From Escherichia phage vB_EcoM_SYGD1, in sequence record MW883059: 64,000 nt of DNA; one strand, written 5' to 3'. This document shows, piece after piece, positions 2,548 through 46,524 of this stretch (its first letter is position 1; each line of letters begins with the position of its first letter). Below the pieces are notes generated by a model. It ran no database searches. It was given only the letters and a program-made list of their open reading frames with translations, and was not told where the DNA came from. The translations under genes and the position numbers were made by a program.

Positions 2548-5688
<3,141 letters not shown>

Positions 5689-34264: not shown

Positions 34265-34604
34265 AGTCAAATATTCGCTTCCTGAGTCATTTTTAATTTT
34301 TGCTGTGGCGTTGGCTGCAGCTCTTGCGGGTAGTCTTTTTGGATTGTTAATTGACTGTCTTATTTTAAACATCGACGGCACAGTAAATATAATAGAAGTT
34401 TGGAGTGAACTTCGCTATACTAAAATTATTTCATTATTTTCATTCTTTTGTATCATTCTATATTTTCATTATGATAATTTTAAAATAAATTGGCAAAGAA
34501 AAAAGGATTACAAAATACAATTAAAAGAATATAATAGCTACATGTCTTATATTGAAAATGAATCAATGAAAGAGTTTGTGATTGATTGCAGGAAATTAAA
34601 ATGA
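34227..34604 (+). CDS. Hypothetical membrane protein
   Basis: 125 aa with hydrophobic segments. Confidence 0.35.
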   Translation: MLRNHDAKAKLNKVKYSLPESFLIFAVALAAALAGSLFGLLIDCLILNIDGTVNIIEVWSELRYTKIISLFSFFCIILYFHYDNFKINWQRKKDYKIQLKEYNSYMSYIENESMKEFVIDCRKLK

Positions 34605-35041
34605 AAACATTATCAGCTGGTATTATCTTTATGACAGAAGATAAAGATTTATTTATGGGACGAGTTACTGGTTCTCGTAAGCCTGGAATGATGGCACATC
34701 GCTGGGATATTCCAAAGGGGCGTGTAGAAAATTCTGATTTAAGCGCATTAGATGCAGCACGAAGAGAATGCTTAGAAGAGACCGGTTTTAGCAATTATAA
34801 TCCAGACCTTCTAGAAGACCTAGGTGTATTTAAATATTCTAGTAATAAAGACTTACAGTTATTTTATTATACGATTCCAGTAGAGCATGAGATGTTTAGA
34901 AATTGCCACTGCGAGTCTTATTTTGAAAATAAAGATGGCGTTATGATTCCAGAGATGGATGCTTTTGCTCTTATTCCTCGTACTCAGTGGCAATATGTGA
35001 TGGGTCCTTCACTTTACCGAATAATGAACAGCCTCTTTTAA
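34586..35041 (+). CDS. nudE: Nudix hydrolase NudE
   Basis: 151 aa; Nudix box GRVENSDLSALDAARRECLEETGF; directly upstream of e as in T4. Confidence 0.8.
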   Translation: MQEIKMKTLSAGIIFMTEDKDLFMGRVTGSRKPGMMAHRWDIPKGRVENSDLSALDAARRECLEETGFSNYNPDLLEDLGVFKYSSNKDLQLFYYTIPVEHEMFRNCHCESYFENKDGVMIPEMDAFALIPRTQWQYVMGPSLYRIMNSLF

Positions 35042-36734: not shown

Positions 36735-37060
36735 TGACAGACACGCAACTTTTCGAATATCTTTATTTTTCGCCAAAAACTATTAAAAATAAATTGGTGA
36801 ATCATTTTGAAATTTTGGCAAATAACAACGTCTTGAGCGAATTTTATCCTAAGCAATACAAATTACAAAAAGGCGTATTCAAAGGATGCAGAGTTTTGTG
36901 CACTGCTCCTAATGCAAGATTAATGAATAAAATTCCATATTTTACCATGGAATTTATTGATGGGCCTTTTAAAGGACTAATTACCCAAAGTTTAATGGCA
37001 TATGATTCTGAGCCATTTTTAATTAAAGAGCAATCTTGGATAAATTTATTTTCTAATTGA
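36731..37060 (+). CDS. Hypothetical protein
   Basis: ATGA overlap with preceding ORF; ORF 36680-37060. Confidence 0.35.
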
Positions 37061-37068
37061 GAGGTTAT

Positions 37069-37431
37069 ATGAAAGCATATCAAATTCTTGAAGGCACGCA
37101 TAAAGGTACTATTTATTTTGAAGACGGTATTCAAGCACGAATTATTGTCTCTAAAACCTTTAAAGAGGACTCTTTTGTAGACCCAGAAATTTTCTATGGT
37201 TTGCATGCCCGTGAAATTGAAATTGAAACACAACCTACAGTTAAAATTGAAGGTGGTCAACACCTGAACGTTAACGTTCTGCGTCGTGAAACTCTGGAAG
37301 ATGCAGTTAAGCATCCGGAAAAATATCCGCAGCTGACCATCCGTGTATCCGGTTATGCAGTTCGCTTTAACTCTCTGACTCCGGAACAGCAGCGCGACGT
37401 TATCGCTCGTACCTTTACCGAGAGTCTGTAA
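37069..37431 (+). CDS. Autonomous glycyl radical cofactor (GrcA/YfiD-like)
   Basis: C-terminal roughly 60 aa ([62 protein letters not shown]) match E. coli GrcA from memory, including glycyl radical motif RVSGYAV; host-like codon usage in this part. Confidence 0.8.
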
Positions 37432-37652
37432 TGGCAAAGATAATTATTGAAGGTTCTAAAGATGTGCTAAATGCTTTCGCCGAGTGGTTTAGTAATTCAG
37501 GCGAACAGCAATTTAATGAAGCGTGGAACATGGGTGATATTAGTGGAATTTATCCTACGACAGAAATTTCTGTTCAGGGATATGGCATTCATGAACCTAT
37601 TCGTTTAGTTGAATATGATTTATGTACTGGTGAGGAAGTAGAATATGATTGA
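37431..37652 (+). CDS. Hypothetical protein
   Basis: 73 aa ORF. Confidence 0.35.
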   Translation: MAKIIIEGSKDVLNAFAEWFSNSGEQQFNEAWNMGDISGIYPTTEISVQGYGIHEPIRLVEYDLCTGEEVEYD

Positions 37653-37911
37653 AGATATTAAGGGTTATAAGCCGCACACTGAAGAGAAAATCGGTAAAGT
37701 GAATGCTATCAAAGACGCTGAAGTTCGTTTAGGACTTATCTTTGATGCTTTATATGATGAATTCTGGGAAGCACTAGATAATTGTGAAGATTGTGAATTC
37801 GCGAAGAATTATGCCGAAAGCCTCGATCAGTTAACTATTGCTAAAACGAAACTCAAAGAAGCCAGTATGTGGGCTTGTCGTGCAGTGTTCCAACCAGAGG
37901 AAAAATACTAA
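37645..37911 (+). CDS. Hypothetical protein
   Basis: 88 aa ORF. Confidence 0.35.
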
Positions 37912-38189
37912 TGGCTCAATTAAGCGCAGGGTTTGGTTATGAGTATTATACTGCCCCTCGTCGTGTATCTGTTGCTCCTAAGAAAATTCAAAGTCTTGAT
38001 GACTTCCAGGAAGTAGTCCGTAACGCTTTCCAGGATTATGCACGTTATCTTAAAGAAGATTCGCAGGACTGTCTCGAAGAAGATGAAATTGCTTACTATA
38101 CGCAGCGTCTTGAACAGCTCAAAAATCTACATGAGGTTCGTGCAGAAGTTTCAAAGTCTATGAATAAATTGATTAGATTTAAAGAATAA
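37911..38189 (+). CDS. Hypothetical protein
   Basis: ORF 37869-38189; start at MAQLSAGF (TAATG overlap) assumed. Confidence 0.35.
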
Positions 38190-38190
38190 C

Positions 38191-38220
38191 TGTTTACTTT
38201 TCCTCTTGACTGTGGTATAA
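38191..38220 (+). promoter_or_regulatory. T4-type early promoter
   Basis: gtttac, 18 nt, TGgTATAAT. Confidence 0.65.
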
Positions 38221-38248
38221 TTTTTCTATCAGTTAAGAGGAGAACAAC

Positions 38249-38710
38249 ATGACTATCAATACAGAAGTTTTTATCCGTCGAAATAAGCTTCGTCGTCACT
38301 TTGAGTCAGAGTTTCGTCAAATTAACAATGAGATTCGTGAGGCATCAAAAGCAGCAGGGGTCTCATCGTTTCATCTAAAATATTCTCAGCATCTCCTTGA
38401 TCGTGCAATTCAACGGGAGATTGATGAGACATATGTTTTTGAATTATTCCACAAAATAAAAGACCATGTTTTAGAAGTTAATGAATTCCTGAGTATGCCT
38501 CCGCGTCCTGACATTGACGAGGATTTTATTGATGGGGTTGAATACCGTCCTGGACGTTTAGAAATCACAGATGGAAATCTTTGGCTTGGATTTACAGTTT
38601 GTAAACCTAATGAGAAGTTCAAAGACCCGTCACTTCAATGTAGGATGGCAATTATTAACAGTCGTCGTTTACCAGGAAAGGCTTCTAAAGCAGTAATTAA
38701 AACTCAATGA
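38249..38710 (+). CDS. regB: Endoribonuclease RegB
   Basis: 153 aa as T4 RegB; position between denV and tk; strong early promoter. Confidence 0.6.
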   Translation: MTINTEVFIRRNKLRRHFESEFRQINNEIREASKAAGVSSFHLKYSQHLLDRAIQREIDETYVFELFHKIKDHVLEVNEFLSMPPRPDIDEDFIDGVEYRPGRLEITDGNLWLGFTVCKPNEKFKDPSLQCRMAIINSRRLPGKASKAVIKTQ

Positions 38711-38717
38711 GGTAAGC

Positions 38718-39263
38718 ATGAGAAAAGCACTACTCGCTGGTCTATTGGCCATTTCAATGATGGCACATAGCTCCGAGCATACTTTCAGTAATGTCCAACT
38801 CGATAACATGCGTTACGCGTATCAATTCGGGGAACAATTTTCTAAGGATGGAAAATATAAAACACACAAAAATATCCATAAGAGCGGATTAGGTCATATA
38901 ATGGCTGCTATTTTATGGCAAGAAAGCTCTGCCGGAGTTAATTTAAAATCTAAACCAAAGCATCATGCCTACGGAATGTTCCAAAACTATTTGCCAACTA
39001 TGCGAGCAAGAGTTAAGGAACTTGGTTATAATATGACTGATGCTGAAATAAAAAGAATGTTGAATAAACGGTCCAATTCAGCTTCCTGGGCGTACATTGA
39101 ACTTTCTTATTGGTTAAATATACATAAGGGCGATATAAGAAAGGCGATATCCTCTTATAATTCGGGATGGAATGTTAAAGCAGGTTCTAAATATGCTTCT
39201 GAAGTCCTAGAAAAGGCTAACTACCTTAAAAATAATAAACTTTTGGAAATAGTAAATGACTAA
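38718..39263 (+). CDS. Periplasmic lytic transglycosylase-like protein
   Basis: N-terminal signal peptide; SLT-like motifs WQESSAG (catalytic Glu-Ser), YGMFQ, AISSYNSG. Confidence 0.5.
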   Translation: MRKALLAGLLAISMMAHSSEHTFSNVQLDNMRYAYQFGEQFSKDGKYKTHKNIHKSGLGHIMAAILWQESSAGVNLKSKPKHHAYGMFQNYLPTMRARVKELGYNMTDAEIKRMLNKRSNSASWAYIELSYWLNIHKGDIRKAISSYNSGWNVKAGSKYASEVLEKANYLKNNKLLEIVND

Positions 39264-39597
39264 AATTTTGGTTTTATGTATAGGATTAATTTCATTTTCT
39301 GCGTTAGCAAATACATCATATACTGAAATTAGAGAGTATGTAAACCGTACTGCCGCGGATTATTGCGGGAAAAATAAAGCATGCCAAGCTGAATTTGCGC
39401 AGAAATTAATATATGCATATAAAGACGGAGAAAGAGATAAATCAAGCAGATACAAGAACGATACTTTATTAAAACGATATGCTAAAAAGTGGAATACCTT
39501 AGAATGTTCAGTTGCGGAGGAGAAAGATAAAGCCGCTTGTCATTCAATGGTTGACCGTTTAGTAGATTCTTATAATCGAGGATTGAGTACTAAATGA
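39256..39597 (+). CDS. Small secreted Cys-containing protein, hypothetical
   Basis: Signal peptide MTKILVLCIGLISFSALA; four Cys; overlaps neighbours at both ends. Confidence 0.4.
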   Translation: MTKILVLCIGLISFSALANTSYTEIREYVNRTAADYCGKNKACQAEFAQKLIYAYKDGERDKSSRYKNDTLLKRYAKKWNTLECSVAEEKDKAACHSMVDRLVDSYNRGLSTK

Positions 39598-40061
39598 TTG
39601 TAAAATATATCAAGGGCGATATTGTCGCCCTTTTCACTGAAGGTAAAAATATTGCGCATGGATGCAATTGTTTTCATACGATGAAAGCTGGAGTCGCAGG
39701 TCAATTAACCAAAGCTTTCCCTAAAATTTTGGAAGCTGATAAATTACAGACTGAATGGGGTGATGTAACTAAACTCGGTTCTTACTCAGTCTATGAAAAA
39801 TACTTTAGGACTCATAAAGCGTATTGCTTCAACCTTTATACTCAATTTCAACCAGGGCCAAATTTTGAATATTCCGCTTTAATGAATTGTATGTTAGAAT
39901 TAAATGAGTTTGGTGAAAATAAACTGATTAAACCTACAATCTATATGCCTAGGATTGGTGCAGGCATAGGTAAAGGGAACTGGGATATTATTGAGGGGAT
40001 TTTAGATACATATTCCTCTAAATTAGAAATTGTGATTGTTGATTGGGAACCATTATTATGA
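39594..40061 (+). CDS. Macro-domain protein (putative ADP-ribose binding / hydrolase)
   Basis: Motif layout GDI...NIAHGCNCFHTMKAGVAGQ ... PRIGAGIGKGNWD resembles macro domain Gly-rich phosphate loops; 155 aa. Confidence 0.5.
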   Translation: MIVKYIKGDIVALFTEGKNIAHGCNCFHTMKAGVAGQLTKAFPKILEADKLQTEWGDVTKLGSYSVYEKYFRTHKAYCFNLYTQFQPGPNFEYSALMNCMLELNEFGENKLIKPTIYMPRIGAGIGKGNWDIIEGILDTYSSKLEIVIVDWEPLL

Positions 40062-40270
40062 ATATACATTATCCACATCCATATGACCCAAAGAATAAGG
40101 CAGTAATTATTCGTCAATGGGAACGCATTTGCCGTACTAAATGTCCAATTAATAGTCCACATGATGTAGATAAAGACTACATTGGAACATTCGTTGAATA
40201 TACCTTTATTGATAAGAAAGGTCGTAAACAGCATGTAGAAGAATACTGCTTAAAGGTTACATGGTTATGA
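40058..40270 (+). CDS. Hypothetical protein
   Basis: ORF 40043-40270; ATG at 40058 assumed. Confidence 0.3.
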   Translation: MNIHYPHPYDPKNKAVIIRQWERICRTKCPINSPHDVDKDYIGTFVEYTFIDKKGRKQHVEEYCLKVTWL

Positions 40271-40473
40271 GCCAAACTAGTATTCTTAAAAATGCCCATT
40301 GTGAAAAGTGTAAATGGCCAGTTGTTTTTGCTTTATGCAACGATGAAATGGCTTGTGATTTCGATTATTGGTGCTATTGTTCTAATAAAGGATGCATCAA
40401 TCATAAAGGTGAAGGATTTTATTCGGGATTTTATCCTTATCCAGATTTCGTTAAAGAAGGTAAACCGAAATGA
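40261..40473 (+). CDS. Hypothetical Cys-rich small protein
   Basis: 70 aa with nine Cys (CEKCKW..., C..C..C). Confidence 0.35.
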   Translation: MVMSQTSILKNAHCEKCKWPVVFALCNDEMACDFDYWCYCSNKGCINHKGEGFYSGFYPYPDFVKEGKPK

Positions 40474-40643
40474 ATAGTTCTGAGTTACAATATGAAGTGT
40501 CACGTGAACTTGATAATTTAATTGAACTCGCTGCTAATAAAGGTTTTGCCATTGGAATTGGCCAAAAAGATACTGATCATTTAACTATGGAAATATTTAA
40601 GCAAAAGCGAATTATTTTAAAACTTCTGGAAATTAATATATGA
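40470..40643 (+). CDS. Small helical protein (possible member of the paralog family)
   Basis: 57 aa, ATGA-coupled to neighbours; not in ORF track (under 60 aa). Confidence 0.3.
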   Translation: MNSSELQYEVSRELDNLIELAANKGFAIGIGQKDTDHLTMEIFKQKRIILKLLEINI

Positions 40644-40825
40644 GCCTAAGCAAAGAACAAAAAGACAGACTCTTTTCTCTTATCCACGAAGTTATGGATA
40701 AAAATAGTGAATTGGAAAAAGTTTGTAATGAATGCGGTCCTTTTAGCGCAAACGAGTACGAAGAACTTTCTAAAGAATTCGATAATAAAGAACAAGAACT
40801 CATTGATTATATAAATTCCTTATGA
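40640..40825 (+). CDS. Small helical protein, paralog family member
   Basis: 61 aa; shares M-x-x-x-EQ...L..L pattern with five other ORFs. Confidence 0.4.
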   Translation: MSLSKEQKDRLFSLIHEVMDKNSELEKVCNECGPFSANEYEELSKEFDNKEQELIDYINSL

Positions 40826-41010
40826 TTACTCGCGAACAAAAGAACGAAATATTATTTTTAGTTGGTGAAATTATTAGTTTAGAAAAGGATTTGTCTTTTG
40901 AAATATCTTCTGAATATGGAGATGCCGAAACATATTACGAATTAGTAAAATCTATCGATAAAGCTGAAAATGATTTAAAAACATATTTAGAAAATTTAAC
41001 TAAGGATTAA
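40822..41010 (+). CDS. Small helical protein, paralog family member
   Basis: 62 aa; family pattern. Confidence 0.4.
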   Translation: MITREQKNEILFLVGEIISLEKDLSFEISSEYGDAETYYELVKSIDKAENDLKTYLENLTKD

Positions 41011-41011
41011 A

Positions 41012-41593
41012 ATGGCGAGTTTAATTTTTACTTATGCAGCAATGAATGCTGGAAAATCTGCTTCTCTTTTGACTGCTGCACATAATTATAAAGAACGTGG
41101 AATGAGTGTATTAGTTCTTAAGCCTGCTATTGATACTCGCGATTCTGTCTGCGAAGTCGTTTCTCGCATTGGAATTAAGCAGGAAGCAAATATTATTACA
41201 GATGATATGGATATTTTCGAGTTCTATAAATGGGCTGAAGCACAAAAAGATATTCATTGCGTATTTGTAGATGAAGCCCAGTTTTTAAAAACTGAACAGG
41301 TGCATCAATTGAGCCGAATTGTTGATACATATAATGTTCCTGTTATGGCTTATGGATTAAGGACTGATTTCGCTGGAAAATTGTTTGAAGGTTCTAAAGA
41401 ACTTTTGGCGATTGCAGATAAACTTATTGAACTAAAGGCAGTTTGTCATTGTAGTAAAAAAGCTATTATGACAGCTCGATTAATGGAAGATGGAACACCC
41501 GTTAAAGAAGGTAATCAAATCTGTATTGGTGATGAAATTTATGTTTCTTTGTGTAGAAAACATTGGAATGAATTAACTAAAAAGCTTGGTTAG
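41012..41593 (+). CDS. tk: Thymidine kinase
   Basis: 193 aa; P-loop AAMNAGKSASLL; C-terminal Cys cluster. Confidence 0.9.
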   Translation: MASLIFTYAAMNAGKSASLLTAAHNYKERGMSVLVLKPAIDTRDSVCEVVSRIGIKQEANIITDDMDIFEFYKWAEAQKDIHCVFVDEAQFLKTEQVHQLSRIVDTYNVPVMAYGLRTDFAGKLFEGSKELLAIADKLIELKAVCHCSKKAIMTARLMEDGTPVKEGNQICIGDEIYVSLCRKHWNELTKKLG

Positions 41594-41635
41594 TGCAAAA
41601 GTTATAAATAGGTTTATCTAACTAAAGGGGTATAT

Positions 41636-41848
41636 ATGCTACAATTAACTGAAAAGCAACTTCGCAATCTTACCGTTCTTCAATTAGATGAAATTCGTAG
41701 GGAAGTTGGAAATATCATTTCAGCTTTGCGTCGAGAAGTATCACTCAACCAATCTCCGGCAGACTATACTAGATTGCGAAATTTTGAAAAATACCTTGAT
41801 AAAGTTAAGGCCGTGCATCGGCATAAAGTAAATACAGGGCAAAAATGA
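41636..41848 (+). CDS. Hypothetical protein (rI.1 position)
   Basis: 70 aa; position between tk and rI. Confidence 0.35.
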
Positions 41849-41860
41849 TAGGAGGCCTTT

Positions 41861-42154
41861 ATGGCCTTAAAAGCAACGGCACTATTTGCCATGCTAGGAT
41901 TGTCATTTGTTTTATCTCCATCGATTGAAGCGAATGTCGATCCTCATTTTGATAAATTTATGGAATCTGGTATTAGGCACGTTTATATGCTTTTTGAAAA
42001 TAAAAGCGTAGAATCGTCTGAACAATTCTATAGTTTTATGAGAACGACCTATAAAAATGACCCGTGCTCTTCTGATTTTGAATGTATAGAACGAGGCGCG
42101 GAGATGGCACAATCATACGCTAGAATTATGAACATTAAATTGGAGACTGAATGA
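41861..42154 (+). CDS. rI: Lysis inhibition regulator RI (antiholin)
   Basis: 97 aa as T4 RI; N-terminal signal-anchor hydrophobic segment; adjacent to tk. Confidence 0.6.
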   Translation: MALKATALFAMLGLSFVLSPSIEANVDPHFDKFMESGIRHVYMLFENKSVESSEQFYSFMRTTYKNDPCSSDFECIERGAEMAQSYARIMNIKLETE

Positions 42155-42537
42155 AATTCAGCGACTTTTCACAAAGTGGAAAACCTTCAAAGGCAGATGA
42201 ATACTTAGGTTTATTAATGGCTGCACAAGCTTATTTTCATTCTGCACATTTTGAAACTAAAAGTTATGCTAGACACAAAGCATACGATTTTATTTTCTCC
42301 GAGTTGCCAGATTTGATTGATAAATTTGGTGAGCAATATTTGGGGTATTCTGGTAGAAAATACACACCTTCAATTCCAGATGCTAGTAAACTTCCTACCG
42401 ACACAATTAAAATGATTGATCGCATACTAGACCAATCTAACAGCATTTATAAAGAAATGCCTCCAGCCATTCAAAGCACGATAGATGATATTACTGGGAT
42501 GTTTTACCAGAGTAAATATCTTCTTTCCCTCGAATAA
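42151..42537 (+). CDS. Hypothetical protein (rI.-1 position)
   Basis: 128 aa; followed by terminator 42542-42565. Confidence 0.4.
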
Positions 42538-42574
42538 CATTAGTCTCCTTCGGGAGACTTTTTTCATTTTACTG

Positions 42575-42604
42575 GTTTACTTTCCATTTGAGCTGTGATA
42601 CTAT
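42575..42604 (+). promoter_or_regulatory. T4-type early promoter
   Basis: gtttac ... tgtgatactat. Confidence 0.55.
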
Positions 42605-43723: not shown

Positions 43724-43990
43724 ATGGGCTTTCCTAAATTAGAAGTAGGCGATTTAGTCTTAACAAAATTGTGGAATGATGCTCAATCAGTAGAAATCTG
43801 TCAATATCGTGGAGCAACAGGTAATTTGATGTACACGATTTATAACCCAGAAATTTTGTTAGAGTGTCATTTGGAACGCTTTATAAAAGACACTGATAGT
43901 ATGCCTTATAGTGTATCGATTGTGCGTAAATCTGACACAAAGGAATACTCTAAAATTTTAGAAAAAATTCATGCCAATAAAAAGGATTAA
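43724..43990 (+). CDS. Hypothetical protein
   Basis: ORF 43712-43990; start at MGFPKLEV assumed. Confidence 0.35.
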   Translation: MGFPKLEVGDLVLTKLWNDAQSVEICQYRGATGNLMYTIYNPEILLECHLERFIKDTDSMPYSVSIVRKSDTKEYSKILEKIHANKKD

Positions 43991-43991
43991 T

Positions 43992-44522
43992 ATGAAACGA
44001 TTAGTATTAGAAGTTAGTTCACTTTTTGGTGAATTGGCTATAGAAAAAGTAAATAATATGTATCGTTTGACGCAAGAAGACGATATGCTATATTTTACGC
44101 CTAGCGAAATTATTCATTTAACCCAAATTGAAAAACCTTACACTGATAAAATTGTAAGCATTAATGATGAGCATAAAATTCATTTTTATTCTTTATGCCC
44201 AGGATTTAATATTGAAAGCGAGTCAATATGCTTATCAATTAATAATTGGGATAATTTTATAACTAAAATTAAATATTTTTATTATTCTAACGAAAGAAAA
44301 CATGGTTTAAAATGGTTTAAAAATTGCAATGCTATTATTACTAACGCTTGTAATCAAAATTATGAAACTGTTTTAAATGTATCAAAGTGTTACGAAGAAG
44401 GAGATGTCTTAACTATTCGTCAATCGGTAAATGATGTTAATGTTGTTGTATTAAACAAAGAAGAAGCTGTTTTATTAAAGACTTATCTTGATTCTGTCAT
44501 TCCAACTATGATTTCAAAGTGA
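43992..44522 (+). CDS. Hypothetical protein (paralog of 44529-45050)
   Basis: ORF 43971-44522; C-terminal EEAVLLKTYLDSVIPTMISK resembles SEAEAMIKYLTTVTPSMKG of next ORF. Confidence 0.4.
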   Translation: MKRLVLEVSSLFGELAIEKVNNMYRLTQEDDMLYFTPSEIIHLTQIEKPYTDKIVSINDEHKIHFYSLCPGFNIESESICLSINNWDNFITKIKYFYYSNERKHGLKWFKNCNAIITNACNQNYETVLNVSKCYEEGDVLTIRQSVNDVNVVVLNKEEAVLLKTYLDSVIPTMISK

Positions 44523-44528
44523 GGAAAT

Positions 44529-45050
44529 ATGTTTATTTCGAGTGAAAGTGGTTTAATTCGTGTTGAATTTAAAAATGACATCTTCCTTATTCAAGGAGAT
44601 GATATTATTAAAATGAGTTATGACGAAATCAAGAAAATTTGCCATGCTCTTGAAAGTCATGGAAAAGTGAACGCTGTTATTGATATTGGCGATTTATGGG
44701 TGACACTTTATGAAGTATCCGAAGGATTTAACATTGAAGATGAAAATAACATCTTAGCTATTGATAAAAGAAGTGATTTGTTTGATGTATTAAAAGTTTA
44801 TGAACATTCAAACGGTGGAAGAAAAGCTGTATTGATTTATCAAAAACCGCATTCATGCGGAACTGCTTCAATCATTTCAAATATTGAAGATGAAACTGAT
44901 ACTTATATGTGTGTTTTAAAAGCTGGTGGTGACCGTCATCCGGATTTTATTTCTATTCGTCAAAACAATGGAGAAATTTCATTATCAAAATCAGAAGCTG
45001 AAGCTATGATTAAGTATTTAACAACTGTTACACCTTCAATGAAAGGATAA
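44529..45050 (+). CDS. Hypothetical protein (paralog of 43992-44522)
   Basis: 173 aa; shared C-terminal motif. Confidence 0.4.
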   Translation: MFISSESGLIRVEFKNDIFLIQGDDIIKMSYDEIKKICHALESHGKVNAVIDIGDLWVTLYEVSEGFNIEDENNILAIDKRSDLFDVLKVYEHSNGGRKAVLIYQKPHSCGTASIISNIEDETDTYMCVLKAGGDRHPDFISIRQNNGEISLSKSEAEAMIKYLTTVTPSMKG

Positions 45051-45052
45051 TT

Positions 45053-45514
45053 ATGATTATTAATGAAAGCTCTTGGCACTATAAATTATTCAAAATGTTT
45101 AATGATGAATGGAAACGACCTAAGACACTGTGCGCGTATTTTTGGTCTATTGTTATTCCTACATTTTTCGTTTCTTTTTTCGGATGTACTATACTCGCAG
45201 GTCTAACTATCATCTGCGCAGAAATCATGCAGAAATGGCTTATTTTTGGTAGTTTATGGACTCTTATTCCATCAGCATTTATACTTGCCATTTTGCTTGT
45301 TTTACTTATTATTGGTTCATTTGTTATTCCTGCACAACTGCATGAAAAATATAAAGATTATAAATGGAAAAAGGATTATACTTTACATGTAGAAAATATT
45401 GATAGGGCGTATAAAGGTTTACCTCCTATTAAACCCAAGAAATCTATTATCGTCGAATTTTTAAAAGCTCGTAAAGCTAAAGTATGTCCTGTTATTGAAT
45501 ATAAGGCTGAATGA
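45053..45514 (+). CDS. Hypothetical membrane protein
   Basis: 153 aa with about three transmembrane helices; ATGA-coupled to downstream nucleotidyltransferase. Confidence 0.45.
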   Translation: MIINESSWHYKLFKMFNDEWKRPKTLCAYFWSIVIPTFFVSFFGCTILAGLTIICAEIMQKWLIFGSLWTLIPSAFILAILLVLLIIGSFVIPAQLHEKYKDYKWKKDYTLHVENIDRAYKGLPPIKPKKSIIVEFLKARKAKVCPVIEYKAE

Positions 45515-46524
45515 TGAAAACAGTAATGAAAAGCTATTTTGGTAGTCATCTTTATGGAACTTCTACCCCAGAATCTGATGTAGATTTTAAAGAAATTTTT
45601 GTTCCTCCTGCTCGTGATATTCTTATCGGAAACGTCAAAGAGCACATGAGTAAAAACACCAACAACACATCATCTAAAAACACTAAAGATGATATTGACC
45701 ACGAATTGTATAGTCTTAAGTATTTCTTTAAATTAGCAGCAGATGGTGAAACCGTAGCATTGGATATGCTTCACACTCCACCTGAACTAGTGGTTAAATC
45801 TGATTTGCCTGATGTGTGGAAGTTTATTCAAGACAACCGTTCTCGTTTTTATACGACTAACATGAAATCCTATTTAGGATATGTCCGTAAGCAAGCTTCT
45901 AAATACGGTGTCAAGGGTTCTCGTTTGGCTGCATTACGTGATGTATTGAAAGTAGTTAATCAAATCCCTGAGCAATGGGTTGATTACCAAGAAGACGGTT
46001 CCATTAAGCAGCGTCGTACTAAAGTTGAAGATATTAAGCATCGTCTTCCAAAAAACGAATTCTGTGAATGGGTGTTCCATGATCATGAGAAAACAGGCCC
46101 ACAAACGTTCTATACTGTATTGGGTCGTAAATATCAGACAACGCTTTCTCTTATTGAGCTTAAGCAGTCACTGAACAAATTAAATGCTGAATATGGTGAA
46201 CGCGCTCGTAAGGCCGAAGCCAATGAAGGCATCGACTGGAAAGCTCTGAGCCATGCTTGTCGTGGTGGACTTCAACTATTGGAAATTTACAAAACTGGTG
46301 ACTTGGTTTATCCACTTCAAGACGCTCCATTTATTCTCGACGTGAAGTTGGGTAAACATCCATTTAAAACAGTTCAAGAGTTTTTGGAAGATGTGGTCGA
46401 TCAAGTAGAAGCAGCATCTACTGAAGCTTCTAAGAACGGTATGCAGCAAAAAGTAGACATGAGTTTCTGGGATGACTTCCTTGAGAAGGTGTATCTCGAA
46501 AACCATCGAAGTTATTATAAATGA
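45511..46524 (+). CDS. Pol-beta superfamily nucleotidyltransferase-like protein
   Basis: N-terminal GSHLYGTSTPESDVDF fits the G[GS]x9-13 D-x-D nucleotidyltransferase signature; 337 aa. Confidence 0.5.
   Translation: MMKTVMKSYFGSHLYGTSTPESDVDFKEIFVPPARDILIGNVKEHMSKNTNNTSSKNTKDDIDHELYSLKYFFKLAADGETVALDMLHTPPELVVKSDLPDVWKFIQDNRSRFYTTNMKSYLGYVRKQASKYGVKGSRLAALRDVLKVVNQIPEQWVDYQEDGSIKQRRTKVEDIKHRLPKNEFCEWVFHDHEKTGPQTFYTVLGRKYQTTLSLIELKQSLNKLNAEYGERARKAEANEGIDWKALSHACRGGLQLLEIYKTGDLVYPLQDAPFILDVKLGKHPFKTVQEFLEDVVDQVEAASTEASKNGMQQKVDMSFWDDFLEKVYLENHRSYYK

Follow-up and report, generated by a model that had tools for sequence, protein, structure and literature searches.

Here, we found that a 64,000-nucleotide stretch of DNA from Escherichia phage vB_EcoM_SYGD1 (record MW883059; hereafter the window) encodes at positions 39594-40061 (+) a single-domain macrodomain protein, the product of the Tequatrovirus gene tk.4, also called adfM. 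We consider it probable, at roughly 0.8, that this gene is an early-transcribed ADP-ribosyl-glycohydrolase that clears DarT2 marks from phage DNA with an active site of the SCO6735/BT1257 type. In hosts with a DarTG2 toxin-antitoxin system, the toxin DarT2 ADP-ribosylates thymidines in single-stranded phage DNA and blocks replication. Tk.4 would bind the ADP-ribose in a cleft formed by loop 1 (His22-Gly23-Cys24-Asn25 … Gly33) and loop 2 (Gly122-Ala-Gly124) and hydrolyse the thymine-ribose bond, which would release free ADP-ribose and restore normal DNA. Within the cleft, Asn25 would hold Gln84, and since this invariant glutamine replaces the catalytic lysine of DarG and TARG1, catalysis is more likely to be mediated by water and the backbone than by a lysine intermediate.

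The evidence for a role in counter-defence comes from T4. A bioRxiv preprint of November 2025 reported that tk.4 was the single significant match in a T4 transposon library on a DarTG2-expressing host and that a clean tk.4 knockout sensitised T4 to DarTG2, upon which the gene was renamed adfM, for 'anti-DarT factor Macrodomain' (10.1101/2025.11.20.689424). In the same work the gene was dispensable on ordinary hosts, and its only reported phenotype is defence-specific; these genetics come from one laboratory and from special conditions (M9 glucose medium, 30 °C), and the authors say of ADP-ribose removal from DNA by the T4 protein only that it 'seems likely' (10.1101/2025.11.20.689424). In the literature searched, we found no biochemical assay of T4 Tk.4. 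The requirement for tk.4 on a DarTG2 host, shown in that preprint for another allele in another phage, would apply to the window gene by analogy, and it is likewise by analogy that Tk.4 itself is expected to hydrolyse thymidine-linked ADP-ribose. Both the macrodomain annotation of tk.4 and its anti-DarTG2 role are already on record, and the window adds no new biology on these two points.

An earlier note on this DNA had suggested that the protein could erase ADP-ribosylation, be it to counter ADP-ribosylating defences of the host or to regulate modifications made by the phage, in a phage that also carries an ART-like ORF. The genetics of the 98%-identical T4 orthologue on the DarTG2 host support the former. 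We found no support for the latter, and the ART-like companion could not be confirmed: Pfam scans of a subset of 20 window ORFs of 135-337 aa detected no ART, the domains found being GIY-YIG, y05I-like, RlaP, AAA, Nudix, lysozyme and DenV.

Locus, gene order and expression context

The reading frame runs from ATG to TGA at exactly 39594-40061, stop codon included, with 155 codons, and lies between regB (38249-38710) and tk (41012-41593), both as the earlier note had described. A 3.4-kb stretch around it shows 98% identity with Tequatrovirus genomes including vB_EcoM_G8, JK38 and wV7, in many of which the CDS is already labelled 'macro domain protein'. At the same position, the T4 reference carries tk.4 (NP_049723), named in RefSeq 'phosphatase; Tk.4; contains A1pp phosphatase motif', and the two proteins are of equal length and identical at 152/155 residues (98%). 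The PHROGs assignment is phrog_335 'phosphatase' (7.8e-65). The gene order regB-vs.1-vs-tk.4-tk.3, followed by further small ORFs and then tk, is that of T4 and JK38, with tk.4 flanked by vs and tk.3 as in T4 and with the window in the reverse complement of the standard T4 map. The ORF is therefore tk.4 (adfM), the same gene in a sister Tequatrovirus.

Several neighbours deserve a mention in their own right. Between regB and vs, the 181-aa vs.1 (38718-39263, +) gave a weak PHROGs match to a 'lytic tail protein' over residues 60-154 (E=7.8e-5), has an N-terminus, MRKALLAGLLAISMMAHS, that resembles a signal peptide by eye, and is mislabelled 'endoribonuclease RegB' in several GenBank records. 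Just upstream of tk, tk.2 and tk.1 (40640-40825 and 40822-41010, +; 61 and 62 aa) both fall into phrog_653 (E=1.3e-24 and 2.4e-22) and are thus tandem paralogues of unknown function. Farther downstream, two adjacent paralogous ORFs (43971-44522 and 44529-45050, +) each combine PF24449 with PF24448, the two y05I-like domains of putative transcription factors (E down to 1.6e-40), and the next ORF but one (45511-46524) carries an RlaP domain (PF10127, 'RNA repair pathway DNA polymerase beta family'). On the other side, 4.5 kb upstream of tk.4 and in its orientation, lies a Nudix hydrolase ORF (34586-35041, +; Pfam NUDIX, E=1.1e-13). It occupies the position of T4 nudE/e.1, and the JK38 annotation there reads 'nudix hydrolase'. 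ADP-ribose is among the substrates hydrolysed by T4 NudE; that the Nudix product could dispose of the ADP-ribose freed by Tk.4 is pure speculation.

The region's highest-scoring sigma-70-like promoter match (TTTACT-17 nt-TATAAT, preceded by TG, 10/12 consensus matches) lies just upstream of regB at 38193-38221 (+) and is the sole plus-strand site with that score in 37000-42600, likely the early promoter of the regB-to-tk gene string including tk.4. regB and the genes after it are closely packed in head-to-tail order, and tk.4 shares an ATGA overlap with its neighbour at either end: the vs stop and the tk.4 start at 39594-39597 (+), seen in the sequence and the ORF ends, and the tk.4 stop and the tk.3 start at 40058-40061 (+), where the next CDS in JK38 starts at the equivalent base. 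The first of these overlaps suggests translational coupling of vs and tk.4. Because of the promoter before regB, the head-to-tail arrangement and the overlaps, early co-transcription of tk.4 together with translational coupling is plausible, and early expression would suit an enzyme that keeps replicating DNA free of adducts.

The start of the gene contains a further element, a hairpin at 39612-39632 (+), 18 nt after the start codon and within codons 7-13, with a perfect 8-bp stem (AAGGGCGA-TATTG-TCGCCCTT, then TTCAC). No base of it differs in T4, DalCa, JK45 (84% protein identity) or JLBYU22 (57%). Within codons 1-10, residues that are identical keep identical codons in 10/10 and 7/7 cases, as against only about half elsewhere in the gene. 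LQ5 keeps the hairpin with one loop change and ECD7 keeps the stem (GGGCGAT/ATCGCCC) with an altered loop; CkP1 and two Klebsiella phages, whose amino acids differ here, do not retain the hairpin. In the DalCa record, it is labelled a rho-independent terminator. The RNA fold of 86 nt around the tk.4 start was no more stable than that of shuffled sequences (z = -0.25), so that the significance of the hairpin rests on the conservation at synonymous sites. Possible roles are attenuation between vs and tk.4 or stabilisation of the RNA, or the hairpin could mark a recombination junction; the protein-level explanation does not need it.

Macro fold and conserved active site

Is the product of this gene a macrodomain? 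The earlier note had read it as one from two glycine-rich segments, which correspond to residues 19-37 and 119-131, and had named the predicted fold as a check beforehand; the check bears the claim out. An AlphaFold2 model on an alignment of 71 relatives reached a pLDDT of 96.0 and a pTM of 0.91 and has the three-layer alpha/beta/alpha macro fold, and a Foldseek search of the PDB returned macrodomains as its top matches, with TARG1, Poa1p, BT1257 and DarG ranked first. Pfam PF01661 (Macro) scored 25 bits against a curated gathering cut-off of 22 (E=1.9e-5), matching residues 22-132 to model positions 2-113 of 118. Already a single-sequence search of the PDB sequences matched BT1257 (4e-8), yeast Poa1p, human TARG1/OARD1 and the DarG macrodomains. 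With a profile built from the alignment of the 71 relatives, the E-values were 2e-19 for BT1257, 1.3e-15 for SCO6735, 2.4e-15 for TARG1, 1.6e-14 for Poa1p and 3.6e-13 and 5.9e-12 for DarG, and coronavirus Mac1 followed with a weaker 1e-3. The ligand loops of the fold are present, with Asn25, Gly33, Gly122 and Gly124 invariant or nearly so in the family and the first glycine of loop 1 replaced here by Lys31. The nearest neighbours in structure and sequence belong to the ALC1/TARG1-like class and not to MacroD, PARG or macroH2A. Tk.4 is thus a single-domain macrodomain of the ALC1/TARG1-like class.

The conserved residues cluster in three places. Loop 1, the catalytic loop, covers residues 19-37 (NIAHGCNCFHTMKAGVAGQ; 39648-39704, +) and contains His22, the invariant Gly23, Asn25 (39666-39668), Gly33 and Ala35 in addition to the allele-specific Lys31 (39684-39686). 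The motif Tyr82-Thr83-Gln84 (39837-39845, +) is invariant in 71/71 family members. Loop 2, the diphosphate-binding loop, covers residues 119-131 (PRIGAGIGKGNWD; 39948-39986, +) with the invariant Pro119, Ile121 and Gly124. Altogether, the alignment (n=71) is invariant at G23, N25, G33, A35, Y82, T83, Q84, P119, I121 and G124.

Key for the assignment of the active site is Gln84 (codon 39843-39845). It aligns with the catalytic lysine of TARG1 (K84) and DarG (K80, a numbering that we checked by counting along the T. aquaticus chain) and with Gln85 of SCO6735, and it is glutamine in 71/71 members of the phage family and in 80/80 cellular relatives (the best 80 of at least 382). Asn25 aligns with N22 of DarG, N23 of PhiKZ gp104 and N27 of SCO6735, all of which are reported to be mutation-sensitive (PMC9411070, PMC13309987), and Gly124 aligns with Gly128 of SCO6735, while Gly126 occupies the position of TARG1 Asp125. 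Of the SCO6735 mutants, neither Q85A nor Q85E has activity, N27S retains almost none, G128E is impaired or inactive, and H24Y loses activity through misfolding (PMC9411070). Indeed, H22, N25, Q84 and G124 of Tk.4 are identical to these four sensitive positions (His24, Asn27, Gln85 and Gly128). SCO6735 is active on DNA, where it cleaves thymidine-linked ADP-ribose, and it rescues cells from DarT. The mechanism proposed for it is lysine-independent: a water held by the backbone of Val25 initiates catalysis, and Gln85 keeps the distal ribose in position (PMC9411070).

Two features of Tk.4 depart from this template. The position of SCO6735 Val25 (or Ile), proposed to place the catalytic water, is taken by the invariant Gly23; because the proposed role of Val25 is exerted via the backbone, this exchange may or may not alter the mechanism. 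Moreover, the loop after Gln84 is six residues shorter than the mobile loop with which SCO6735 is proposed to bind DNA, and it has no equivalents of Lys89 and Lys94 of that loop. Since Gln84 and the sensitive residues match SCO6735 and the loop is short, Tk.4 is best described as an enzyme of the Gln type (SCO6735/BT1257-like) whose loop is short and resembles that of TARG1 and DarG, and not as a DarG-type enzyme. As the catalytic lysine of DarG and TARG1 is absent, catalysis by Tk.4 is less readily predicted from DarG, and the analogy with DarG alone would not predict any activity. Its place in the Gln-type branch, and not in the Lys-type branch of DarG, affects both the choice of mutants and how far data on DarG can be extrapolated.

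The window protein differs from T4 Tk.4 by three substitutions (window to T4: T15A, K31G and A32S), two of which fall into the catalytic loop, where codons 31-32 (39684-39689) read Lys31-Ala32 as against Gly31-Ser32 in T4. Position 31 is the first glycine of the loop-1 GxG motif and is glycine in 63/71 phage-family members and in 72/80 cellular relatives (again the best 80 of at least 382). Lys31 is found in the representative of a 122-member cluster (P0001), in P0003 and in the distant lineages P0048 and P0099, and both alleles are common among Tequatroviruses. We considered whether Lys31 marks a degenerate allele, which is unlikely because the residue recurs in this way while every other key residue is intact; we expect the Lys31 allele to be active. 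The Gly31/Lys31 polymorphism of the catalytic loop could possibly tune the choice of substrate. A separate case is a metagenomic sequence of 95 aa (P0007; three member sequences in its cluster), whose match to the window protein covers its first 88 residues and gives way to a short, divergent tail (…QPGQILNISL); it looks like a frameshifted copy of tk.4.

Distribution and alternative functions

Using tblastn, we found tk.4 homologues in 2,727/50,697 phage records, from phages of Escherichia, Klebsiella, Salmonella, Pseudomonas, Vibrio, Acinetobacter and other hosts. Two metagenome bins labelled bacterial (P0071 and P0099), which we had tested for a DarT context, were rejected as cellular loci, as genes of T4-like phages were found on their contigs (Rnl1, a Dda-like helicase, Pnk, a spanin and a dCMP deaminase). 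Scanning bacteria and archaea with one genome for each species, we obtained at least 382 cellular relatives. The best 80 of these all share H22, G23, N25, Q84 and G124 and are nearly all standalone ORFs of about 150 aa. Within 4 kb of these 80 loci, a single-sequence phmmer search with P. aeruginosa DarT2 as the query (E<=10), whose sensitivity is limited for divergent DarT, detected no DarT2-like ORF, and a Pfam scan of the 10 immediate neighbours on five chromosomes found unrelated housekeeping genes and no DarT. In one of these, that of Flagellimonas marina (locus L034), the macro gene (3995-4489) lies about 330 nt upstream of a thymidine kinase ORF (4818-5483; Pfam TK, 2.1e-49), which echoes the closeness of tk.4 and tk in T4; the neighbours on the other four chromosomes are unrelated, and the pairing may be a coincidence.

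Because the cellular relatives are standalone, have no DarT2 detected nearby and sit among unrelated neighbours, the cellular lineage does not look like a captured DarTG2 antitoxin and rather resembles the standalone 'guardian' role proposed for SCO6735. We tentatively speculate, at clearly less than even odds, that the Tk.4 type is a separate and ancient Gln-type standalone lineage of thousands of phages and hundreds of chromosomes, with a lysine-independent SCO6735-like mechanism and maybe a wider set of substrates, and not a captured DarG. If so, the T4 'AdfM' and the 'AdfM' of phage PhiKZ would be convergent solutions.

The T4 genetics are compatible with hydrolysis but also with stoichiometric inhibition, in which Tk.4 would bind DarT2 or the DNA that it modifies and would neutralise the toxin mainly in this way. 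Such inhibition has precedents: the dead SCO6735 mutant Q85A remains an inhibitor of DarT in vitro, and a stronger one than dead DarG or TARG1 (PMC9411070), and AdfA and AdfB, factors of T4-like and Vibrio phages, are described as direct DarT inhibitors. However, Tk.4 with its 155 aa has no counterpart of the C-terminal DarT-binding domain of DarG, the invariance of Asn25, Gln84 and Gly124 in phage and cellular relatives points to a conserved catalytic pocket instead of a toxin-specific interface, and no DarT was detected near the cellular relatives, so that we regard inhibition by binding as improbable. Even less probable is a role in metabolism, with free ADP-ribose derivatives as the substrates of an ADP-ribose-1''-phosphate phosphatase or an O-acetyl-ADP-ribose deacetylase, as implied by the RefSeq name 'phosphatase', by PHROG 335 and by JGI names. 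These names stem from domain matches (the domain name A1pp) and not from assays, the sole reported tk.4 phenotype is specific to defence in a gene that ordinary hosts do not require, and the structurally close Poa1p has a serine at the aligned position of the invariant Gln84. Moreover, we know of no T4 pathway that yields ADP-ribose-1''-phosphate, because no 2'-phosphate is left when Pnk and Rnl1 repair RNA.

Could Tk.4 instead erase or tune the marks that the phage sets itself? Alt, ModA and ModB modify arginine, and to our knowledge the Arg-ADP-ribose linkage is not cleaved by ALC1/TARG1-like macrodomains, although MavL of Legionella is an arginine-specific macrodomain. T4-like phages carry these three ARTs (PMC9503650), for which early co-expression with tk.4 is plausible; but tk.4 is not adjacent to their genes, no ART was found among the 20 window ORFs scanned or near the standalone cellular relatives, and no phenotype of tk.4 on ordinary hosts has been reported. 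Both the arginine chemistry and the genomic context therefore make the erasure of the phage's own marks on host proteins or RNA very unlikely. More weight, while still on the unlikely side, goes to a range broader than the products of DarT2, which would include uracil-ADP-ribose on RNA and Glu/Asp-linked ADP-ribose on proteins and would let Tk.4 counter other defences or toxins. What SCO6735 cleaves includes thymidine-ADP-ribose on DNA, uracil-ADP-ribose on RNA and the PARP1-type ADP-ribosylation of proteins (PMC9411070, PMC13036486), and the standalone cellular relatives, near which no DarT was detected, suggest that such enzymes act as general guardians. However, CmdTAC is reported to defend robustly against T-even phages despite their tk.4 (PMC11618068), so that adenine-linked RNA ADP-ribosylation, at least, is not countered. 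A broad range would add to the clearance of DarT2 marks from phage DNA, our preferred explanation, and does not replace it.

Comparison with known macrodomains

The best matches to Tk.4 in sequence and structure are SCO6735 of Streptomyces coelicolor (PDB 5E3B) and BT1257 of Bacteroides (PDB 2FG1/2AFC). Like Tk.4, both have a glutamine in place of the catalytic lysine, conserve the mutation-sensitive Asn, His and Gly and are encoded by standalone genes unpaired with DarT. They differ from it in that the identity is just 20-29%, that their lysine-bearing mobile loop is six residues longer and that Val25 stands where Tk.4 has Gly23; in addition, Tk.4 is viral and would serve counter-defence, whereas SCO6735 would serve the protection of the host genome. 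Human TARG1/OARD1 (PDB 4J5R/4J5S), the top Foldseek match and a member of the same class, also reverses DarT-type thymidine ADP-ribosylation (PMC8501950), yet its catalytic dyad Lys84/Asp125 corresponds to Gln84/Gly126 in Tk.4.

DarG (PDB 5M31, 5M3E, 5M3I and 7OMU) is more distant. It has Lys80 at the position of Gln84, and its C-terminal DarT-binding domain and the adjacent darT gene both have no counterpart in Tk.4. In the single-sequence search of the PDB, the window protein matched DarG at E-values of 0.014-0.076, and the PADLOC DarG model matched at 1.7e-7 over the macro part only (positions 2-145 of 329). We therefore rejected an assignment as a DarG antitoxin, which would call for the catalytic lysine, the C-terminal domain and a toxin gene next door.

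The closest parallel in function is gp104 of PhiKZ, likewise a phage-encoded single macrodomain that protects against DarTG2 (PMC13309987). It removes ADP-ribose from DarT2-modified DNA in vitro, with reduced activity in N23A (Cell Reports 2026, PMC13309987). In contrast to Tk.4, gp104 is closely homologous to DarG, with E=9e-25 for the M. tuberculosis protein, and conserves the lysine in an 'FPTK' motif; between the window protein and gp104, only 23 residues aligned (E=0.017). The two proteins thus belong to different macrodomain subfamilies, from which we infer that the T4-type and the PhiKZ-type AdfM were acquired independently. The name AdfM was given independently by two groups, for PhiKZ gp104 (PMC13309987) and for T4 Tk.4 (10.1101/2025.11.20.689424), and according to the Cell Reports paper there was no earlier report of a macrodomain Adf (PMC13309987); the shared name hides two macrodomain lineages. 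Together with AdfN, a NADAR protein acting on guanine, Tk.4/AdfM for thymine would mean that T-even phages stack specific erasers of DNA ADP-ribosylation.
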